From: Kangiella sp.
GTDB lineage: Bacteria; Pseudomonadota; Gammaproteobacteria; Enterobacterales; Kangiellaceae
DNA: 49,929 nucleotides
Reading direction: 5' to 3'
NCBI GenBank assembly: GCA_002733465.1
Contig: NVVT01000011.1
Span: forward strand, 91,048-140,976
In this document: positions 2,991 through 42,623 of the stretch, piece by piece
How positions within the stretch are numbered: position 1 is the stretch's first letter
Layout of the letters: every line of letters begins with the position of its first letter
The notes under the pieces: model-generated
Database searches by the model: none
Told to the model about the DNA's origin: nothing
Seen by the model: only the letters and a program-made list of their open reading frames with translations
Program-made: the position numbers and the translations under genes

Positions 2991-3113
2991 ATGTCATTCT
3001 TATTTGCCTTTTTTACGATAACCTAATGTCTAATACAGAAAAAGTCAAAAATTTAAGGAATGTACGTCCAGCAAATTACAATTATTCGACTTCCTATAAA
3101 AAAAGAATGCCCA

Positions 3114-4121
3114 ATGAAAAATAACCAACTCATAATATATCAAGCCTCTGACGGAAAAGTCAAAATAGAAACACATTTTGAGAATGAGACCGTATGGTTA
3201 TCTACAGAACAAATAGCAGAACTTTTTCAACGGGATCGAAGCGTCATAACTAAGCACATTAGTAATATTTTTAAAGATGGTGAATTAAATAAAGAAATGG
3301 TCTGTGCAAATTTTGCACAGACCACTCAACATGGTGCAGTAAAAGGGCTAACACAATCAAAAGATGTTAAACATTATAATTTGGATGTCATAATTTCAGT
3401 TGGCTACAGAGTAAAGTCTCATCAGGGCATACACTTTAGAAAATGGGCAACCGCACTTATCAAAGAGTACTTGATCAAAGGTTTTGCAATGAACGATGAA
3501 CTGCTTAAAGAGGCAGGTGGCGGTAATTACTTTGATGAACTTTTGTCTCGAATCCGTGATATTCGTTCATCTGAAAAGGTGTTTTGGCGTAAAGTTTTAG
3601 ATGTTTACGCTACCAGTATCGATTACGACCCGCAAATAGAACAATCTGTTATGGTTTTTAAAACTATTCAAAATAAAATGCATTGGGCAAGCCATGGAGA
3701 AACAGCTGCGGAAACGGTATACAAGCGAGTAGATTCACTAAAAAAGGATATTGGACTGACTCACTTCAAAGGCGAAATACCGACAAGAAAAGAGGTTGAA
3801 ACGGCTAAAAACTACCTTGTAGAAGATGAGCTAAATATCCTAAACCGAATGGTGACGGCCTTTTTGGAAATTGCAGAAATCCAAGCATTAGATCGTACAC
3901 CAATGTATATGGCAGATTGGATTAAGCAGTTAGATAATTTCCTGAAATTAACCAATAAGAATATTTTGCAACATTCGGGAACAATTAGCCATCAAAAAGC
4001 AATTGAAAAAGCCCATAATGAATATACGATTTATAAAGAAAAAATTAAAAATCGAATTACCCAAGTTGAAAAAGACTTTATCAAGCAAATTGAGAATAAA
4101 ACAAAAGAATTGAAGCGTTAA
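3114..4121 (+). CDS. RhuM-family protein (virulence-island-associated family of unknown function)
   Basis: MKNNQLIIYQASDGKVKIETHFENETVWLSTEQIAELFQRDRSVITKHISNIFKDGEL...NLDVIISVGYRVKSHQGIHFRKWAT is the characteristic RhuM N-terminal signature. I place the start at the internal ATG at 3114 rather than the track start at 3060. Confidence 0.8.
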   Translation: MKNNQLIIYQASDGKVKIETHFENETVWLSTEQIAELFQRDRSVITKHISNIFKDGELNKEMVCANFAQTTQHGAVKGLTQSKDVKHYNLDVIISVGYRVKSHQGIHFRKWATALIKEYLIKGFAMNDELLKEAGGGNYFDELLSRIRDIRSSEKVFWRKVLDVYATSIDYDPQIEQSVMVFKTIQNKMHWASHGETAAETVYKRVDSLKKDIGLTHFKGEIPTRKEVETAKNYLVEDELNILNRMVTAFLEIAEIQALDRTPMYMADWIKQLDNFLKLTNKNILQHSGTISHQKAIEKAHNEYTIYKEKIKNRITQVEKDFIKQIENKTKELKR

Positions 4122-4739
4122 ATGTCATTTATATTCGCATATTTTTACGACAACTTAATGTCAAAAACAGAAGAAGCCTGCTTAAAAGAGTGGCGACAAA
4201 AACTCCTCAAAAATGTCTCTGGTGATGTTTTAGAAATTGGCGCTGGAACAGGAGCCAATATCGAGTTTTATCCTAAAAACATTAAATTAGTTTTAGCTGA
4301 ACCCGATAAAAATATGCGCCAACAAATTGAATCTAAAATCAGTAATAGCAAGTTAAAAACTACGATAGTATCTGACGGAACAGCAGAAAATATTGAAGCG
4401 AAGGATGACTCTTTTGATTTTGTTGTTTCAACTCTGGTATGTTGTTCTGTCACAAAGCCTGAACGTTCTTTACTTGAAATTAAAAGAGTCTTAAAACCTG
4501 GCGGTAGTTTAGTGTTTCTAGAACATGTTGGTGCAAAACAAGGATCTAAAAGAAGACGTTGGCAAAATATAATCAATCCATTTTGGAAAAAATTGGCTGG
4601 TAACTGTCATTTAAACCGAGATACCGAGGCATCTATATTGTCAGCAGGCTTCAAAATTAATGATATCAAACGGGAAAGCATGAGAAAAACAATACCAATT
4701 ATTCGACCTACAATTCGAGGTATGGCGGTAAAGCCATAA
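4122..4739 (+). CDS. Class I SAM-dependent methyltransferase (Methyltransf_11-like)
   Basis: It carries the SAM-binding motif VLEIGAGTGANIEF, an acidic loop LAEPD and the post-motif LKPGGSLVFLEH. Its ATG directly abuts the rhuM-like stop (TAAATG). Confidence 0.8.
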   Translation: MSFIFAYFYDNLMSKTEEACLKEWRQKLLKNVSGDVLEIGAGTGANIEFYPKNIKLVLAEPDKNMRQQIESKISNSKLKTTIVSDGTAENIEAKDDSFDFVVSTLVCCSVTKPERSLLEIKRVLKPGGSLVFLEHVGAKQGSKRRRWQNIINPFWKKLAGNCHLNRDTEASILSAGFKINDIKRESMRKTIPIIRPTIRGMAVKP

Positions 4740-4758
4740 TCTAGGTAGCCAACAGCTC

Positions 4759-6900
4759 TTATTGATCCTGTCGCCATTGCACACCTACAAAAAAGCTCCG
4801 ACGAACCCCAGGGAAATATCGCTCTTCAGTAAAAAAAGTATAGTCTGCGCGGGTGGCATATTTTTTGTTTAATAAATTATCTATTCGTGCAAAAACTTGC
4901 CAATCGTGATCCGTTTCCCAATTTACTCTTAAGTTGATCAGATCATGACCTTCATATTTATGCAGATTTTCTGCATCTGTAAAATAACCGCCTTGATGCA
5001 CCCACTCTAACTCGGTATTAAGGCTATCCGAGACGGCCCATTGTAGCTGTGCACTGCCGAATCGTTTTGGCGCGGTATCAATATCATTTCCATTGATATT
5101 TATTTCACCTAGCAATTGGTCGCTGACATATTGATGGGTTGCTAAAGATCCATTGATGGAAAAATTGAAGGAGTCGTTTATTAAATAATCGATCCGCGCT
5201 TCAACACCTCGATGTTTGGTTTGACCGTTACTTAAATTGAAAAAATTGGAATCTCGAAAAATTACATTATTTTTTTTCATTAAAAAAATCACCATTTCAT
5301 AAGAAAGTTGACGATGGTATTTCCTAAAACCCAATTCAAAACTATCTAGTTCAACCGATTTGAGATCTGCAACGGATTGCGATCGTTGCAATCGATATAA
5401 TTCAGTTGCCTGTGGAGCCCTAAACCCTTGAGCAAGATTTGCAAACACCTGCGAATTATTATCCAGTTGATAACCGACCCCCAATTTTGGCGACCAATTT
5501 GAAAACTCATCTTTTCGATCGTTTGGGCGACTGTAACGACAACCACCAAAACCACATTCAGTGCCATCCTCTCGGCTACGACCTGATAACATATTATTGC
5601 GATAGTCGTAACTCAAGTTCTCATAACGAATACCAGCGGTTATTTTCCACTGCTCTAAGAACTGCCAATCCAAGTGTAAAAAGGGTGCAACAAGGGTGGC
5701 GTCCACTTGGTAGTCATAGTGTTTACCGATGGGAATAGTGGCTTGTAAAAAAGCAGAGCCTTCAGTTGGATTTATTTGAGTTTGTTTTAAAAACCCGTCG
5801 CTAATCTCACTATCAAGACCGATAGACCAAGCTAGTTTATTACTCAGTTTTGAATAGTAACCCAGCTGAAATCCAAGGCTTTTCTGACCATTTTCTTCCA
5901 AGGGTTTGCCTGGCAAAAAATGCATTCTAAAAGTCATATCCGTCAATCGCACATAAGGGGTAAAGATGATTTTTGATTGCGTAGCTGAATTGCTAATATC
6001 GCCTAATGGTACTTCGAATCGGGACCATATTCTTAACGATTCAGCCTTTCTAAAAGCCTCTGGATTAGGGTTTGATCGAGCGACAGCGCTATTTCGATAA
6101 CTATCAGCGCCTAAAACAAAACCCGCTGTTTGTTGATTTAAATGAGTGAGACTAATTCCGCTATTCACCACTAAATCTTTAGTAGAATATAAATGTCGTC
6201 CACTCAATTTTTGTTGTTCATAGCCAGAATCATTTCGATAGCCTCCATCATGAGCAACGGTTAACGCTAGATTATAACCCGACGTTAGGTTATCAGAATC
6301 GGTGTTTCGGCTTCCAACTTGGGCTTTAAAACGAGAAAAGTCATCACTGCCTATTTCAATACCGAGCGAAGCGCGCGGGGATGCTGGTACGTCGGGAGTA
6401 TTAATGTTAATAATCCCATGTAGCGCGTTGGAACCGTAAAACGCACTTCCCGGCCCGCGCACCACTTCAATACTTTGCGCCTGTTCAGTATGTGCTTCAA
6501 AGAGTTCATTCACATTGCAAAAACCGGCGGCCCTTAAAGGGATATTATCCTCGGTGATTAAAAAACCACCGCAAGCTCCTGCTCCGGTTAACACCGGTGA
6601 ACGGATCGCCGGTAAATATTCTTGCCCGTTCCCTCGTTGTAAATTAACACCTGGAATTCTTTGTAATAATTCTTGAATATGCACATGAGCCACCTGACTA
6701 ATTTCTTCAACGGAAATTTTGTCAACATTGCCAATGTGCAAATGAGCATCTGAATCAGTGCGGGTTGCAATAACGATAATTGTTTTATCGTCAGCAGCTA
6801 GTTGTTCTTGTTGTTGCTCTTGTTGTTGATTTTTCGATTCCAAACCACTAACCAGCGGGCTTAGTAAAACCAATAAAACACACAGCGTATTTTTTCTCAT
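4759..6900 (-). CDS. TonB-dependent outer-membrane receptor
   Basis: It has a signal peptide (MRKNTLCVLLVLLSPLVSG), a TonB-box-like TIIVIATR, plug-domain motifs (IEVVRGPGSAFYGSNALHGIINI) and a C-terminal beta-barrel ending in an aromatic-rich terminus. Length is 713 aa. Confidence 0.9.
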   Translation of the reverse strand: MRKNTLCVLLVLLSPLVSGLESKNQQQEQQQEQLAADDKTIIVIATRTDSDAHLHIGNVDKISVEEISQVAHVHIQELLQRIPGVNLQRGNGQEYLPAIRSPVLTGAGACGGFLITEDNIPLRAAGFCNVNELFEAHTEQAQSIEVVRGPGSAFYGSNALHGIININTPDVPASPRASLGIEIGSDDFSRFKAQVGSRNTDSDNLTSGYNLALTVAHDGGYRNDSGYEQQKLSGRHLYSTKDLVVNSGISLTHLNQQTAGFVLGADSYRNSAVARSNPNPEAFRKAESLRIWSRFEVPLGDISNSATQSKIIFTPYVRLTDMTFRMHFLPGKPLEENGQKSLGFQLGYYSKLSNKLAWSIGLDSEISDGFLKQTQINPTEGSAFLQATIPIGKHYDYQVDATLVAPFLHLDWQFLEQWKITAGIRYENLSYDYRNNMLSGRSREDGTECGFGGCRYSRPNDRKDEFSNWSPKLGVGYQLDNNSQVFANLAQGFRAPQATELYRLQRSQSVADLKSVELDSFELGFRKYHRQLSYEMVIFLMKKNNVIFRDSNFFNLSNGQTKHRGVEARIDYLINDSFNFSINGSLATHQYVSDQLLGEININGNDIDTAPKRFGSAQLQWAVSDSLNTELEWVHQGGYFTDAENLHKYEGHDLINLRVNWETDHDWQVFARIDNLLNKKYATRADYTFFTEERYFPGVRRSFFVGVQWRQDQ

Positions 6901-37909: not shown

Positions 37910-37953
37910 AAAACCACTTTTAATAAAAGATTTAAACCATAAGGAGGCAACAA

Positions 37954-37989
37954 ATGCCGAAACTAAAACAACAGGAAAATAAAAACTAA
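37954..37989 (+). CDS. 11-codon leader-type small ORF (MPKLKQQENKN) with a strong Shine-Dalgarno sequence
   Basis: AAGGAGG lies 6 nt upstream of the ATG. The ORF sits between the promoter candidate and an intrinsic terminator, upstream of rtcB. It is too short to validate by composition. Confidence 0.35.
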   Translation: MPKLKQQENKN

Positions 37990-38065
37990 CCTTCTTATGC
38001 AAATATTCGCTCGGAAGGTAATAGAAATATTGAATACCTTTCGAGTCAGAAAAACCTTTCTAAAA

Positions 38066-38097
38066 AGCCCTGACTGGATTTCCGTCAGGGCTTTTTT
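38066..38097 (+). terminator. Rho-independent terminator
   Basis: AGCCCTGAC-N9-GTCAGGGCT forms a 9-bp GC-rich stem followed by TTTTT. An A-tract precedes the stem. Confidence 0.8.
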
Positions 38098-38211
38098 CAT
38101 TTAAGCGATCAAATAAAATCGTTTAAATTCCCTCGTAAGACATTCTTAACAGGTATTCTCAAAATTTTAAGCAACAATGCTGTTTATTAAAACAGCAATG
38201 AGGATACAGTC

Positions 38212-39420
38212 ATGCCTATAAAAATTGAATTAAATAAAAATGCGAAGAATGGAATGAAGCCAGTAAAAATATTTACTCGCGACATTGGCAACACCGCTTT
38301 GACACAGTTAAAGAACTTGTCGCAGCTTCCTTTTATTCATTCGCATATCGCCGCTATGCCGGATGTGCACGCAGGAATTGGTGCAACCGTTGGTTCGGTT
38401 ATTCCAACCGATGGCGCAATTATTCCTGCAGCGGTTGGAGTTGATATTGGTTGTGGAATGAACGCTGTGAGGCTTTCAATAAAGTCATCACAACTACCAA
38501 CTAACTTAAAGGAAATACGTTTTGCGATTGAACGTGCGATCCCGGTGGGAGCGAAGGCTCACAAAATGATATCGGCTCGAGATAAGAGTATTCGACAATT
38601 ACAAACAGGAATGGATTTTATATTTGAAAAACATTCGGCGTTGTTGAAGATGATGAAAAAACCTCGGCAAACCTGGGTTCAACAAATGGGAACTTTAGGT
38701 AGTGGCAATCACTTTATTGAAATCTGCATCGATGAAAATAAAGATGTCTGGATCATGTTGCACTCGGGTAGCCGAGGAATTGGTAATGCGATTGGTCGTT
38801 ACTTTATTAGTAAAGCGAAGAAAGATATGCAAGGTCATATGCAAAATTTACCTGACCGAGATTTATCTTATTTTAGTGAGGGTTGTGAGAACTTTGATGA
38901 TTATATGTTTGCTGTTGATTGGGCGCAAAGGTATGCATTTTATAATCGACAAGAGATGATGGAGCTAGTTGTTAGAGCGATTAAGCCTTTCCTTCCGCCA
39001 TTTCAATTAACCAAGGAAGCGATCAATTGTCATCACAATTATGTAAACAAAGAACACCATTTTGGTAAAGATGTTTACGTGACAAGAAAAGGTGCGATTA
39101 GTGCACAAGACGGTGAGTTAGGAATTATCCCAGGCAGTATGGGAACTAACTCCTACATTGTCAGTGGTAAAGGCAAAGCGGATTCTTTTTGTTCTTGTGC
39201 TCATGGAGCAGGAAGAAAAATGACGAGAACAGCCGCGAGAAAAAGATTTAGAAGAGAAGATATGGAAGAACAAACACAAGGCGTTGAATGCAGAAAAGAT
39301 AGTCGAGTGATCGATGAGATCCCTGCAGCCTATAAAGACATTGAAACGGTTATGGAAAATCAGTCGGATCTTATTAGTGTTGTTCACCAGTTAAAACAAG
39401 TTGTTTGCATTAAGGGATAG
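38212..39420 (+). CDS. rtcB: RNA 3-prime-phosphate/5-prime-OH ligase RtcB
   Basis: The motifs are MPDVHAGIGATVGSVIP, GVDIGCGM, GSGNHFIE, HSGSRGIGN, NCHHNY and SCAHGAGR (guanylylated His). It is 402 aa, like E. coli RtcB. GAGGA lies 7 nt upstream of the ATG. Confidence 0.95.
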   Translation: MPIKIELNKNAKNGMKPVKIFTRDIGNTALTQLKNLSQLPFIHSHIAAMPDVHAGIGATVGSVIPTDGAIIPAAVGVDIGCGMNAVRLSIKSSQLPTNLKEIRFAIERAIPVGAKAHKMISARDKSIRQLQTGMDFIFEKHSALLKMMKKPRQTWVQQMGTLGSGNHFIEICIDENKDVWIMLHSGSRGIGNAIGRYFISKAKKDMQGHMQNLPDRDLSYFSEGCENFDDYMFAVDWAQRYAFYNRQEMMELVVRAIKPFLPPFQLTKEAINCHHNYVNKEHHFGKDVYVTRKGAISAQDGELGIIPGSMGTNSYIVSGKGKADSFCSCAHGAGRKMTRTAARKRFRREDMEEQTQGVECRKDSRVIDEIPAAYKDIETVMENQSDLISVVHQLKQVVCIKG

Positions 39421-39539
39421 ATAAATTATGAATAGCACAACATACGAGGAGACCTAGATTATGAAAAATAATTTTAGCCACAATAACAAAAAAATGGCTT
39501 TTATAAAGCTTTTACGAAAACGAATTAGGAAAAGAAATC

Positions 39540-40490
39540 ATGGAAATAAAATTATTAGAGGAGGTGTTGGATTGTCTGAATGATGGACGACGATTAGTTC
39601 ACTATTATGATGATCAATATGCTCTATATTTGTTACAGAAATTTTGTGAGAAAAAAATCACTAAAGATCAATCTAGCATACAGATAAAGGAGATTAAAAG
39701 TTCTTGTTTTGCAAAGTTGCTAAATAAGCCAAGTATCGTAAAGTTACTGTCCGAATTAGGTGATGGAAAATTATCATCGGACCGATTGCTACAGGTATCA
39801 GCTCAAGAGTTCGAAAGCTATGTGATTACTTTATCGCAATGGGGAAAGAAGGAAGACTATCCGTGGGAACAGACTTCAGTGCCAGGTTCTAATTTAGTAT
39901 TGCAGCTAAATTTAACTAATAAGCATGACCAGTTATTGAAAGACTTAGAAATAGATAGTGAACCATTTCGGTTTGATGATCACCCTATTCACTCTGTCAA
40001 AAATTCTTTGTCTTGGGCAAGAATTGATTTTAACTTTGAAACGGGCGAAGCGTTAATCGAAGAAGTCCAAAATGATTGGTTAAGGATAGCGTCTAGGCAT
40101 GCAGAATCGGCTAAAAGAGCGATTCTAAATGGCAGTACATTTTATAGACGTTGGGGCGTAAAATATAAAGCAAAAAATATGCTTGAATATACCCAAGATT
40201 TGTTACCTAAGCATAAAAAGAACTGGCAGGAGATCACGCTATTTTATGCGATAAAATTGATTAAGCAAGAAATTGGTATCAATAAGATTTTTTATCATAG
40301 CTATGAAACAGGGGCATTGTTAAAGAACATCAATGGTCGTTTACCGCCTCGTTCTTTATATACCGATTTACCAAAGCGGTTTTGCTTTACTCCGTGTAAT
40401 ACTGGACCCGAATTTATTACGAAGGATTGCAGAGTCAAAAGAAAACTGAAGAAAGCAAAGACTGAAAATTGGTTTTGTCTATCTTTGTAA
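39540..40490 (+). CDS. Hypothetical soluble 316-aa protein, no family recognised
   Basis: This long ORF is co-directional between rtcB and the small basic protein gene. It has no TM helix or signal peptide. An acidic cluster WARIDFNFETGEALIEEVQNDW is present and the C-terminus is basic (KRKLKKAK). Confidence 0.65.
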   Translation: MEIKLLEEVLDCLNDGRRLVHYYDDQYALYLLQKFCEKKITKDQSSIQIKEIKSSCFAKLLNKPSIVKLLSELGDGKLSSDRLLQVSAQEFESYVITLSQWGKKEDYPWEQTSVPGSNLVLQLNLTNKHDQLLKDLEIDSEPFRFDDHPIHSVKNSLSWARIDFNFETGEALIEEVQNDWLRIASRHAESAKRAILNGSTFYRRWGVKYKAKNMLEYTQDLLPKHKKNWQEITLFYAIKLIKQEIGINKIFYHSYETGALLKNINGRLPPRSLYTDLPKRFCFTPCNTGPEFITKDCRVKRKLKKAKTENWFCLSL

Positions 40491-40531
40491 TTTTAACCTT
40501 TGTCACAATGACATAAAAACTAGGAGGTAAC

Positions 40532-40819
40532 ATGTCTAAAAAACGCAGTAGCAAACGAATGAACAGAACGCTGAATAGCTTAGAAGTTTCCAAAAACCAT
40601 TCGGCGATGCAAATAACGATTGCGCCAGTCGCACCTAGAAATCCGTATGCAAATCATCCATTGATGAGAAAAAGTGCGGTTCACGAAAAATCGAAATCTG
40701 CAGAACGTTCTAAGACTCGTCGCGAGACCAAGCAATTGGCTCGCGATTGGTCAACTCATTCATCCAGCTTAATATTTAAATATTTTTGGACTGACGTTCC
40801 TTTTCGCTACAGTAAATAG
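40532..40819 (+). CDS. Small basic protein with ArfA-like (alternative ribosome-rescue factor) layout
   Basis: AGGAGG lies 4 nt upstream of the ATG. The core NHPLMRKSAVHEKSKSAERSKTRR resembles E. coli ArfA [22 protein letters not shown] (recalled from memory). It shares the pattern PL-[FM]-R ... EK-x-K-x4-S-x2-R-[RK]. A Trp follows, then a hydrophobic or aromatic tail (LIFKYFWTDVPF). An intra-ORF hairpin occupies codons 63-72. Confidence 0.55.
   Translation: MSKKRSSKRMNRTLNSLEVSKNHSAMQITIAPVAPRNPYANHPLMRKSAVHEKSKSAERSKTRRETKQLARDWSTHSSSLIFKYFWTDVPFRYSK
40720..40746 (+). promoter_or_regulatory. GC-rich stem-loop inside the ArfA-like ORF (candidate RNase III / mRNA-truncation element)
   Basis: TCGCGAG-A-CCAA [GCAA] TTGG-CTCGCGA pairs 11 bp with one bulged A and a GNRA-type tetraloop. 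No U-tract follows. Confidence 0.6.
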
Positions 40820-40871
40820 CTTCACCTCTTACACTTATACTATCCAAGAGACCTTACAGGTCTGTAAAAAC

Positions 40872-41387
40872 TCACAATAAGCGCGAAACAACCTCAAGAC
40901 AATTCTTTAAAGGTAACCACATTTCAAGTCGATCGTTGTTATCAGAATCTGCTGGCAAAAAACCATATTGTTCGTAAAATTTTATGATACTTGAATTCAT
41001 CGGGTCTACAAATAACCCTATTGCTGAAATTTGTTCAGCAACTAATACGGTCCTATTGATAGCATCAATTAATAACTTTTCACCTAAATATTGGTTTTAG
41101 TAAGACTGCGCCACAGCAAGACATGCTAATTTAACAGCGCTAAGAGGATGTGGGTATTTTTTATAATATTTATGTGTTGGCGGAATCGTAACGGAATAGC
41201 CTGTTAGGGTGTGATAACCGATTATGTTGGTTGGCTCTGTATCCTGACAGGCTACGTATGTTTTTGATATTTGTTTTGCATTTTTTTGACGAGGTTAGTG
41301 TTGTAAAAATTCATTCAACTCACTAACACCACAATCAAAATATTTTCGATTATGGTACCGAGTAATCTCCTCAATGATTAGTGACAT
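40872..41387 (-). pseudogene. TacT-like GNAT acetyltransferase toxin gene inactivated by two in-frame TAA codons
   Basis: My hand translation in one frame of 172 codons gives MSLIIEEITRYHNRKYFDCGVSELNEFLQH*PRQKNAKQISKTYVACQDTEPTNIIGYHTLTGYSV...LACLAVAQSY*NQYLGEKLLIDAINRTVLVAEQISAIGLFVDPMNSSIIKFYEQYGFLPADS...LPLKNCLEVVSRLL*. The stops are at 41295-41297 and 41097-41099. The start overlaps the end of the upstream DUF1778 antitoxin gene. Confidence 0.75.
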
Positions 41388-41664
41388 TCACTGTGCCCTT
41401 GTAGCGACTAGCTGCTTTAAGTAATTTGCTACTTGTTTGTGGCGCACTCTCCAATGCGCTCAGTAAAGCATCAGCACCCGCCATCGACAAATTCAAAGTC
41501 TCTGTTCGTTCAATGACTTTTCTAGATTTTTCCATAGCCGAATCAATAAGAAACTGAGAAACGGTTGCGCCAGAATAATCCGCGGCGCGTTGAATAAATT
41601 CCTGAATTTCATTAGAAGTTCGAGCAACTAAACGAGTTTCTTTGCGTTCGATGTTAGTCGCCAT
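41371..41664 (-). CDS. DUF1778 (TacA-type, RHH) antitoxin
   Basis: RLVARTSNEIQEFIQRAADYSGATVSQFLIDSAMEKSRKVIE is the DUF1778 signature. It is 97 aa and is followed by a GNAT gene remnant. Confidence 0.8.
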   Translation of the reverse strand: MATNIERKETRLVARTSNEIQEFIQRAADYSGATVSQFLIDSAMEKSRKVIERTETLNLSMAGADALLSALESAPQTSSKLLKAASRYKGTVNVTNH

Positions 41665-41699
41665 TATTTCACCTTTGTTTCTTTATAAATAACTCTTGG

Positions 41700-41756
41700 T
41701 GCCATTATGGCGCACATACACAATATCGGTCAATATGTTTGCCTATATGGCACACG
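41700..41756. promoter_or_regulatory. Two 17-nt direct repeats with internal dyads upstream of the antitoxin gene (candidate autoregulatory operators)
   Basis: TGCCATTATGGCGCACA (41700-41716) and TGCCTATATGGCACACG (41740-41756). The first contains GCCAT-T-ATGGC. Confidence 0.4.
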
Positions 41757-41876
41757 TAGCTTGATTAATACGAATTAAATGTCAAAGTAACTTCCGTTAT
41801 AAAATATTTAATTTACGTGAGCATTAAAAAAATAATTGGGAGCCGTTTCATTTCAAAAACAGTTCATCTAATGCAT

Positions 41877-42623
41877 TCACTTATCTGACGAAGCGCGAGT
41901 TAAAAACCAATCAACCATAATGTTTTCTAAATTCGGATCATGCTTAAAAAGCGGTCGACCATGCCCATTGCCTTTATAGACAAGTAATCTTGTTTTTGGA
42001 CTCTTGGCAGAAAGGAATATTTTATTTGATGAATTAAACGTATATGCATCATCTTGCGAGGCGATAATCAGCGCCGGTATTTCACTAATGTGATTGAATG
42101 ATGCTATACCTTTCTCGTCCAATCCAGAAGAGAATAATACTAAACTTTGAGGTTTAATCTTCTGAGAAAATTTAACCGCTTGATAGCCACCACAACTAGC
42201 ACCAATAATAGAAATATTATCACTGCCAATTTTATCTGCAAGGTATTCATACGCTAGCTCAACGTCTCCCTGCCAAAACTTGTTAACTGCTTTTATTTTA
42301 TTCATAAATTCTTTTCGGTTTTTTGATTCTTTACGCAACAACTTACGAGAAAATGTCGGAGTTGTACTATCTGCAAAACCTCTAAAATCCAATGCGAGTG
42401 AGGTAACATTTTGTTCGCCTAGTAATTTTGCTAAATCAGAGTACATACTCTTATCAGCATTACACTGATGCAACATTAATACGCCGAATTTCGCGTTAGA
42501 TCCAGCATCAACAAAATTTGCTGCAAGCTGAAAACCGTCCGAAGCTTTAAGGCTAACTCTTTCCGCGCTCACGTTTAAACTAATAAATAAAATGGCTAAT
42601 AACCACACTAATTTCTTTTTCAT
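41877..42623 (-). CDS. Secreted alpha/beta hydrolase (dienelactone-hydrolase-like)
   Basis: It has a signal peptide (MKKKLVWLLAILFISLNVSA), the nucleophile elbow GASCGG and a C-terminal GHG. Confidence 0.75.
   Translation of the reverse strand: MKKKLVWLLAILFISLNVSAERVSLKASDGFQLAANFVDAGSNAKFGVLMLHQCNADKSMYSDLAKLLGEQNVTSLALDFRGFADSTTPTFSRKLLRKESKNRKEFMNKIKAVNKFWQGDVELAYEYLADKIGSDNISIIGASCGGYQAVKFSQKIKPQSLVLFSSGLDEKGIASFNHISEIPALIIASQDDAYTFNSSNKIFLSAKSPKTRLLVYKGNGHGRPLFKHDPNLENIMVDWFLTRASSDK

Follow-up and report, generated by a model that had tools for sequence, protein, structure and literature searches.

A selected sense-strand RNA hairpin marking the functional end of an rtcB-linked gene for a small basic protein in Kangiella: a candidate non-stop mRNA switch

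The data show that a hairpin under selection as sense-strand RNA marks the functional end of a small protein-coding gene of Kangiella sp. and that, in this genome, it also marks the end of the operon formed by rtcB, the gene for a 316-amino-acid protein (p316), and the small gene itself, an operon with no other terminator. The best explanation, which we regard as plausible if a little short of probable and which is drawn by analogy with arfA and brfA, is that the hairpin forms the message's 3′ end ahead of the stop codon, so that expression of the small protein would be gated by tmRNA. The window, i.e., the whole stretch of DNA analyzed, comprises 49,929 nt of Kangiella sp. assembly GCA_002733465.1 (contig NVVT01000011.1, positions 91,048 to 140,976 of the forward strand). 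The small gene and its parts lie in the window as follows.

40522 to 40527, + strand: Shine-Dalgarno sequence AGGAGG, 4 nt 5′ of the ATG, as read from the sequence
40532 to 40819, + strand: small ORF (95 aa); its N-terminus is variable and K/R/S-rich, its core basic and conserved, and its tail unconstrained
40634 to 40753, + strand: conserved core, codons 35 to 74 (PRNPYANHPLMRKSAVHEKSKSAERSKTRRETKQLARDWS), from protein alignments A1 and A2
40714 to 40752, + strand: extended sense-strand RNA hairpin (core at 40720 to 40746), from folds, 16 of 16 orthologs, RNAalifold, and synonymous-site constraint
40754 to 40819, + strand: unconstrained read-through tail and incidental stop codon, the sequence and length of the tail differing in every ortholog

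Variation in the core of the small ORF falls mainly at third codon positions, which indicates that the ORF is protein coding, and a GGAGG-like motif is found 5′ of most of its orthologs. The product is identical to a hypothetical protein (COA86_11410) from a Kangiella sp. MAG; counting this identical protein, its close homologs number 14. In the AlphaFold2 model the N-terminus is disordered and residues 55 to 87 form a long basic helix. The stop codon is a TAG at 40817 to 40819.

The inverted repeat TCGCGAG-A-CCAA-GCAA-TTGG-CTCGCGA occupies the 27 nt from 40720 to 40746 and corresponds to codons 63 to 72 of the ORF (RRETKQLARD), exactly as an earlier note on this DNA had described it. The hairpin consists of a lower stem of 3 to 4 bp, an outer stem of 8 bp (the 7 bp of TCGCGAG/CTCGCGA plus one G-U/G-C pair), a bulged A, a 4-bp inner stem, and a tetraloop, its helix totaling ~15 to 16 bp, interrupted by a bulge and an internal loop. 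Folding of the RNA, which had been suggested as a check, bore out the structure: a 37-nt segment folds at −19.9 kcal/mol (z, −4.6), a value equaled by 0 of 200 dinucleotide shuffles, and the extended form at 40714 to 40752, with its 3 to 4 added bp, reaches −24.3 kcal/mol (z, −5.95). The hairpin still forms when 361 nt are folded, and it ranks third in stability among the + strand local folds of the 50-kb window, only 6 of 9978 40-nt segments being as stable. A second copy of the repeat was not found in the window, and this uniqueness rules out a REP-like repeated element.

The window copy has no U-tract 3′ of the hairpin, and a terminator scan of positions 38000 to 42000 called no + strand terminator, whether at the hairpin or 3′ of the small ORF, in line with the initial observation that the structure lacks a U-tract and is not an intrinsic terminator. 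The hairpin was also not called when the orthologs at loci L001, L002, and L006 were scanned. A canonical intrinsic terminator was therefore rejected for the window hairpin and these three orthologs.

Selection on the structure was assessed with the DNA of 16 distinct orthologous loci from Kangiella, Aliikangiella, and metagenomes. An equivalent hairpin is predicted in 16 of 16, with free energies of −13.9 to −22.9 kcal/mol. In alignment A3 (49 columns), 93% of cells are paired, versus 22 to 39% when the partner columns are slid, and the RNAalifold consensus is the predicted hairpin itself. G-C to G-U changes at four stem positions keep the pairing on the sense strand only and, since G-U pairs exist only in the sense RNA, argue against an antisense structure or a DNA palindrome. 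Pairing is likewise retained in three ortholog sequences with a C-G to U-A swap and in L006, which carries A70V (GCT to GTC) and where a shift in register keeps the helix paired. Double-sided covariation is sparse (two pairs, four cells), a level reached by 18 of 500 shuffles.

Codon use in the stem is strikingly uniform. For R63 all 16 of 16 sequences have CGT, for R64 15 of 15 have CGC, and for A70 14 of 14 have GCT; R71 is CGC in 14 and CGT in 2; and GAG encodes E65 in 14 of 16, GAA being the codon for E52 and E58. Outside the stem, three to four synonymous codons are in use for the Arg, Ala, Ser, and Pro residues of the core (Mann-Whitney P = 0.003). At third positions, the mean pairwise difference is 0.118 in the outer stem versus 0.38 in the rest of the core (permutation P < 5e-5, with 0 of 20,000 random draws as low); third positions of the inner stem and loop evolve freely (0.385), as does that of D72, where T and C each pair with G. 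The loop itself varies among orthologs (ACAA, AAAA, or 6-nt loops), so that the GNRA cap first described is correct for the GCAA of the window but is not a conserved feature. The conservation and covariation test that the earlier note had proposed for the stem was thus answered positively as regards occurrence, synonymous constraint, and some compensation, but double-sided covariation was thin. The note had held that an unconserved stem, or one free of covariation, would speak against it; what the orthologs have is a conserved stem with synonymous constraint and compensatory changes. Selection acts on the hairpin as sense-strand RNA.

These observations bear on whether the inverted repeat could be a DNA-level element, such as a palindromic operator or a recombination or cassette boundary, or else a chance by-product of encoding RRE...ARD, a pair of readings that we consider very improbable. 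It is true that TCGCGA is a palindromic hexamer present twice and that ortholog homology breaks right after the repeat, with differing downstream neighbors. However, C-to-T changes break the DNA symmetry and the resulting G-U pairs form on the sense RNA only, leaving the antisense strand unpaired, while the register shift in L006 preserves pairing and not half-site sequence; moreover, attC-type core sites are absent, and the window contains no second copy of the element. As for chance, the Arg and Ala codons are fixed well beyond what the amino acids need, and equal synonymous diversity inside and outside the stem was tested and rejected.

Among more distant relatives, DNA of the wider family was checked for two further lineages, L018/L019 and L020. 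A GC-rich hairpin is present at the boundary of core and tail in both L018 (GGAGUGGU-UUG-ACCGCUCC; z, −2.8) and L020 (UGGCGCA-GUGA-UGCGCCA; z, −1.7), a suggestive observation from few data. Plasmids, phages, and viral contigs were searched for more family DNA and gave no matches.

Conservation of the gene ends with the stem. The core DNA of the window and its close orthologs is 88 to 96% identical as far as the stem, and from 5 nt 3′ of it, where indels also appear, identity is 42 to 49% in seven of the eight close relatives (63% in L011). Stop codons are scattered, the first one in frame being met between +7 and +115 nt beyond the stem. All orthologs have the hairpin inside the ORF and never 3′ of the stop, the exception being L015: there the stop codon is part of the lower stem, directly after the outer stem, and the protein ends in ...LARDV. 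The arfA-like placement originally claimed is upheld in the sense that the conserved protein ends at the hairpin and that tail and stop drift like noncoding DNA. The hairpin had also been placed directly after the basic core, but its codons belong to that conserved core, and the tail, which had been called hydrophobic, is variable and not specifically so. T content rises from ~0.20 in the ORF 5′ of the hairpin to 0.27 to 0.53 after it, which accounts for the Phe/Leu/Ile-rich, hydrophobic-looking tails. At least six T in an 8-nt stretch follow the stem in L001, L002, L005, L006, L015, and L016, and a T5 run follows it in L017; in some orthologs T-rich runs lie 4 to 12 nt beyond the stem.

In the wider family, 11 of 147 tails (~7%) end in -AA or -VA, compared post hoc with 1.2 expected from tail composition; examples are SLAA, PLAA, LLAA, and FLVA (proteins P0015 to P0163), which resemble ssrA/ClpXP degrons. 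Such ends imply that the stop codon is reached in some family members, with the products still being destined for proteolysis.

Upstream of the small ORF, on the same strand, the window contains the following features.

38062 to 38100, + strand: intrinsic terminator with a 13+2 bp stem and a U-tract, between a UDG-family gene and rtcB, ending the preceding unit
38212 to 39420, + strand: RtcB RNA ligase gene, first of the unit (PF01139, E 3.7e-131; PDB RtcB matches; synteny)
39540 to 40490, + strand: gene for p316, an uncharacterised 316-aa protein, adjoining the small ORF on its 5′ side as part of the three-gene module

The p316 protein matches no Pfam or NCBIfam entry, and every one of its 252 homologs is named "hypothetical." Its AlphaFold2 model has a pLDDT of 92.7, and a Foldseek comparison with the PDB gave no significant match; the weak matches (E 0.04 to 1, TM < 0.3) were mostly to GNAT acetyltransferases and too poor to be of use. 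The p316 gene lies directly 5′ of the small ORF at 10 of the 16 distinct loci, with a remnant at one more, and rtcB precedes it wherever the contig extends far enough. As shown by this synteny, the small gene is linked to RtcB and p316 in a conserved three-gene module across the Kangiellaceae. The remnant, in a Kangiella MAG without rtcB at the small-ORF locus (L001/L004, positions 2745 to 2909), consists of 55 residues that are 89% identical and lie 5′ of an intact small ORF, indicating that rtcB and p316 were lost and the small gene and its hairpin kept. Loss of rtcB and p316 with retention of the hairpin-bearing ORF is also seen in L007, L012, and L016. In the distant lineage L020 (positions 4001 to 6380), where p316 is 43% identical, the order is p316-small-rtcB, with the hairpin-bearing small ORF 9 nt upstream of rtcB.

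The neighbors downstream of the small ORF differ by locus and include toxin-antitoxin modules, MatE, and an AAA_14/DUF4143 gene. In the window, a gene for a TacA-type antitoxin (PF08681) lies on the − strand at 41371 to 41664, followed on that strand by ORFs at 41295 to 41387 and 40872 to 41000 that appear to be a broken GNAT (TacT-like) toxin gene; in L007 and L012, ParD toxin-antitoxin modules occupy the position of the TacA-type gene. Elsewhere in the window, a c-di-GMP-I riboswitch aptamer (RF01051, 56.2 bits, E 2e-8) is found at 2258 to 2348 on the − strand. A tiny ORF at 37944 to 37979 (MPKLKQQENKN) was considered as a decayed paralog of the small gene and discarded, its alignment score equaling the shuffle mean.

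No local fold in the window is more stable than the hairpin at 38062 to 38100 (−22.3 kcal/mol), which, as a strong terminator, sets off rtcB-p316-small as a separate unit. With A and U runs on both sides, it is possibly bidirectional; the terminator scan made no + strand call there, its nearest match being on the − strand ~100 nt further on, at 38197 to 38178. This is what a standard terminator of this genome looks like, with a U-tract, in contrast to the intragenic hairpin, which has none. A sigma-54/RtcR-type promoter for rtcB was sought and rejected, matches occurring at chance level with none upstream and the sole match in the 38,000s being intragenic. Nor was there support for the hairpin as an XBP1/HAC1-like splicing substrate of RtcB, the loop sequence being unconserved and no nuclease having been found.

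The fact that no other strong structure closes the rtcB-p316-small unit, together with the U/T-rich runs that follow the stem in several orthologs, would also suit an operon 3′ terminator or stabilizer devoid of regulatory meaning, with non-stop translation an incidental cost or the small ORF poorly translated. We think this unlikely. Purifying selection on the protein core is clear, and the ORF has a strong Shine-Dalgarno sequence; the ORF and hairpin were kept in L007, L012, and L016 after rtcB and p316 had gone; and the hairpin always lies within the ORF, save in L015.

The small ORF belongs, by sequence searches, to an unannotated and apparently undescribed protein family. It has no Pfam or NCBIfam match at E ≤ 1, and when 1.84 billion representative proteins were searched with a core profile, 323 were recovered at E ≤ 0.001, with lengths of 44 to 110 aa; the family count amounts to at least 323 clusters at 50% identity. 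The family consensus is RNxxAxHP[IL]MRKGGVHEKSKSAxR...ET...[ED]W, followed by variable tails. None of the 58 family members tested matches PF03889 or another meaningful family, the few source names are "hypothetical protein" (e.g., in Leucothrix mucor), and a text search of the papers covered gave none with the family motif. In a KGG subfamily (L018, positions 3031 to 3070; L020, about 5014 to 5058), the mRNA for HAxHPIMRKGGVHE itself forms a second strong hairpin (−17 to −23 kcal/mol) through pairing between its HP and GG codons, as observed in two to three DNA sequences; it is absent in Kangiella, where S-A replaces G-G.

The earlier note had called the ORF ArfA-like and had aligned P43 with P23 of E. 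coli ArfA, and neither claim was supported. ArfA contains KGKGS(Y) and KH motifs in the segment that binds the mRNA channel; the KGKGS motif and the KH dipeptide are absent from the core (...HPLMRKSAVHEKSKSAERSKTRRE...). The E. coli ArfA sequence was confirmed by PDB entry 5H5U and an ArfA alignment was then built for hhalign, which compared the family with ArfA at a probability of 0.2 to 0.4% over 7 to 8 columns only, the short HPLMR~DPLFR motif on which the proline register also depends. The family profile retrieved no ArfA or BrfA chain from the PDB at E ≤ 10. With Pfam (PF03889), NCBIfam, the PDB profile search, and hhalign all negative, membership in the ArfA family was rejected, and no homology of the small protein to known rescue factors was detectable.

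What the gene shares with arfA is its layout. E. coli arfA mRNA is cleaved by RNase III or ended by termination to give a non-stop mRNA, making its expression tmRNA gated. As in arfA, a gene for a small basic protein carries a strong intra-ORF hairpin near the end of the conserved part, the hairpin has no canonical U-tract, the tail beyond it is dispensable or unconserved, and conserved C-terminal core residues are encoded by the hairpin arms (RRE/ARD here). In the E. coli control (L022), a hairpin of ~20 bp has arms that code for the invariant WEASGK and FFTTG. The genes differ in that the small gene has no sequence or profile homology to arfA and no KGKGS, in the length of the helix (~15 to 16 versus ~20 bp), and in context, arfA lying next to mscL and the small gene in the rtcB-p316 module; cleavage and tmRNA control would apply here by analogy alone. 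In both arfA and brfA, a hairpin or terminator within the ORF, ahead of the stop, yields a non-stop mRNA (PMC8012679), and, as brfA shows, a protein with no relationship to ArfA has come to use it too (PMC8012679). The T-rich runs right after the stem in L001, L002, and L006 are similar to the layout of Bacillus subtilis brfA, whose ORF contains an intrinsic terminator and from which the window copy differs by its missing U-tract, by not being called in the scans, and by the absence of a BrfA chain among the PDB matches at E ≤ 10.

Any role of the hairpin in forming a 3′ end would place the mRNA end 5′ of the stop and hence produce a non-stop message. From this we infer the position of the mRNA 3′ end, the tagging by tmRNA, and the role of the small protein in the following scheme. 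Transcripts would end at the base of the hairpin or be trimmed or cleaved back to it, candidate routes being arrest of a 3′ exonuclease, endonucleolytic processing, or, in orthologs with a U-rich run, weak termination. With the mRNA end preceding the first in-frame stop, ribosomes would reach the end of a non-stop mRNA, and the basic product of ~70 to 74 residues would be tagged by tmRNA-SmpB and degraded, building up only if trans-translation were saturated or damaged. The accumulated protein could then act with the co-encoded RtcB and p316 against damage to the translation apparatus. The tmRNA feedback and the rescue activity of the small protein would both follow the arfA precedent, and a ribosome-rescue function is suggested by the basic helical product and the linkage to RtcB.

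Several observations favor this non-stop reading: the stability rank of the hairpin, its conservation in 16 of 16 orthologs, the synonymous constraint, and the pairing-preserving substitutions; the collapse of identity at the stem, the +7 to +115 spread of stops, and the naturally "truncated" protein of L015; the boundary hairpins of L018 and L020; and the lack of a canonical terminator after the ORF, whereas the upstream unit has one. To these may be added the arfA/brfA layout and the absence of arfA from Kangiella koreensis, in which ssrA, smpB, and arfB are present (PMC11633108, Table S1). Against it weigh the ~15- to 16-bp helix with its bulge and internal loop, compared with the ~20 bp of E. 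coli arfA, the sparse double-sided covariation, the missing U-tract, the terminator left uncalled in the orthologs tested, the ~7% of -AA/-VA tails, and the absence of homology to known rescue factors. In L020, where the small ORF is upstream of rtcB, a strict 3′-end function would cut off rtcB. RNase III substrates typically contain roughly two helical turns (~20 bp) of mostly uninterrupted double-stranded RNA; the helix is short relative to these, and cleavage of the hairpin by RNase III would be hypothetical.

Some of these points lend weight to the main alternative, namely, that the mRNA runs past the stop, the full-length protein is made, its C terminus is unimportant, and the hairpin serves as some other cis-regulatory RNA element, be it an autoregulatory site for the basic protein, p316, or RtcB, a ribosome-pausing signal, or an element of intercistronic processing or stability. 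RNA-level selection would suit any RNA function equally; the L020 hairpin ORF sits inside an operon, 9 nt ahead of rtcB; the -AA/-VA enrichment implies that stops are reached in some family members; and the helix is short for RNase III, with no terminator called. We nevertheless find this alternative rather doubtful. It leaves unexplained why, in each ortholog, DNA conservation breaks off exactly at the stem's 3′ base and why the stop position is random, the sequence has no slippery site for frameshifting, and a stable hairpin with nothing conserved after it, in a unit with no other terminator, is the signature expected of a 3′ end.

The genomic context invites comparison of the proposed non-stop gene with other rescue systems. 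The PrfH-RtcB2 "rescue and repair" module links a translation-related gene to the RtcB ligase (PMC9304027; PMC6514570). Like it, the present module has an accessory gene tightly linked to RtcB and a sporadic phyletic distribution; unlike it, there is no release-factor domain, there are three genes including that for the 316-aa protein, and there is no known ribotoxin context. Since Pfam and NCBIfam detected no RF-1 or PCRF domain in p316 or the small ORF, and thus no release-factor homolog next to RtcB, the unit was not assigned to the PrfH-RtcB modules. ArfT and the C-terminal tails of SmpB and ArfB are charged helices that probe the empty mRNA channel. The small protein resembles them in being short, strongly basic, and predicted to be helical (residues 55 to 87), ribosome binding being purely hypothetical. 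A basic helical peptide, linkage to RtcB, and a genus without arfA give an indirect context for the small protein as a putative ribosome rescue factor, a class that releases peptidyl-tRNA or recruits RF1/RF2 on non-stop ribosomes.

The regulatory design is known, while the protein family, its breadth, and its linkage to RtcB and p316 appear undescribed. To our knowledge, arfA and brfA are the only gene families in which an intragenic hairpin or terminator yields a protein made from non-stop mRNA that reports failure of trans-translation. That the present gene would be a third such tmRNA-gated switch, of independent origin, in a fairly widespread family of small basic proteins acting with RtcB and p316 as damage sensor and effector, i.e., a rescue and RNA-repair module in bacteria without ArfA, is a possibility with the balance clearly against it. 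Further small rescue factors probably exist that are not findable by sequence similarity (PMC8012679). The four-part signature described here, comprising a hairpin whose synonymous sites are under selection, a loss of conservation beyond the stem, a stop codon at random positions, and a basic helical product, offers a sequence-independent way to search for such genes and singles out the present family as a concrete, testable candidate. If the non-stop reading is true, the RtcB/p316 linkage would connect the status of trans-translation with RNA repair. We know of such a connection so far for PrfH-RtcB2 only, and its confirmation in Kangiella would genuinely interest researchers on ribosome rescue.
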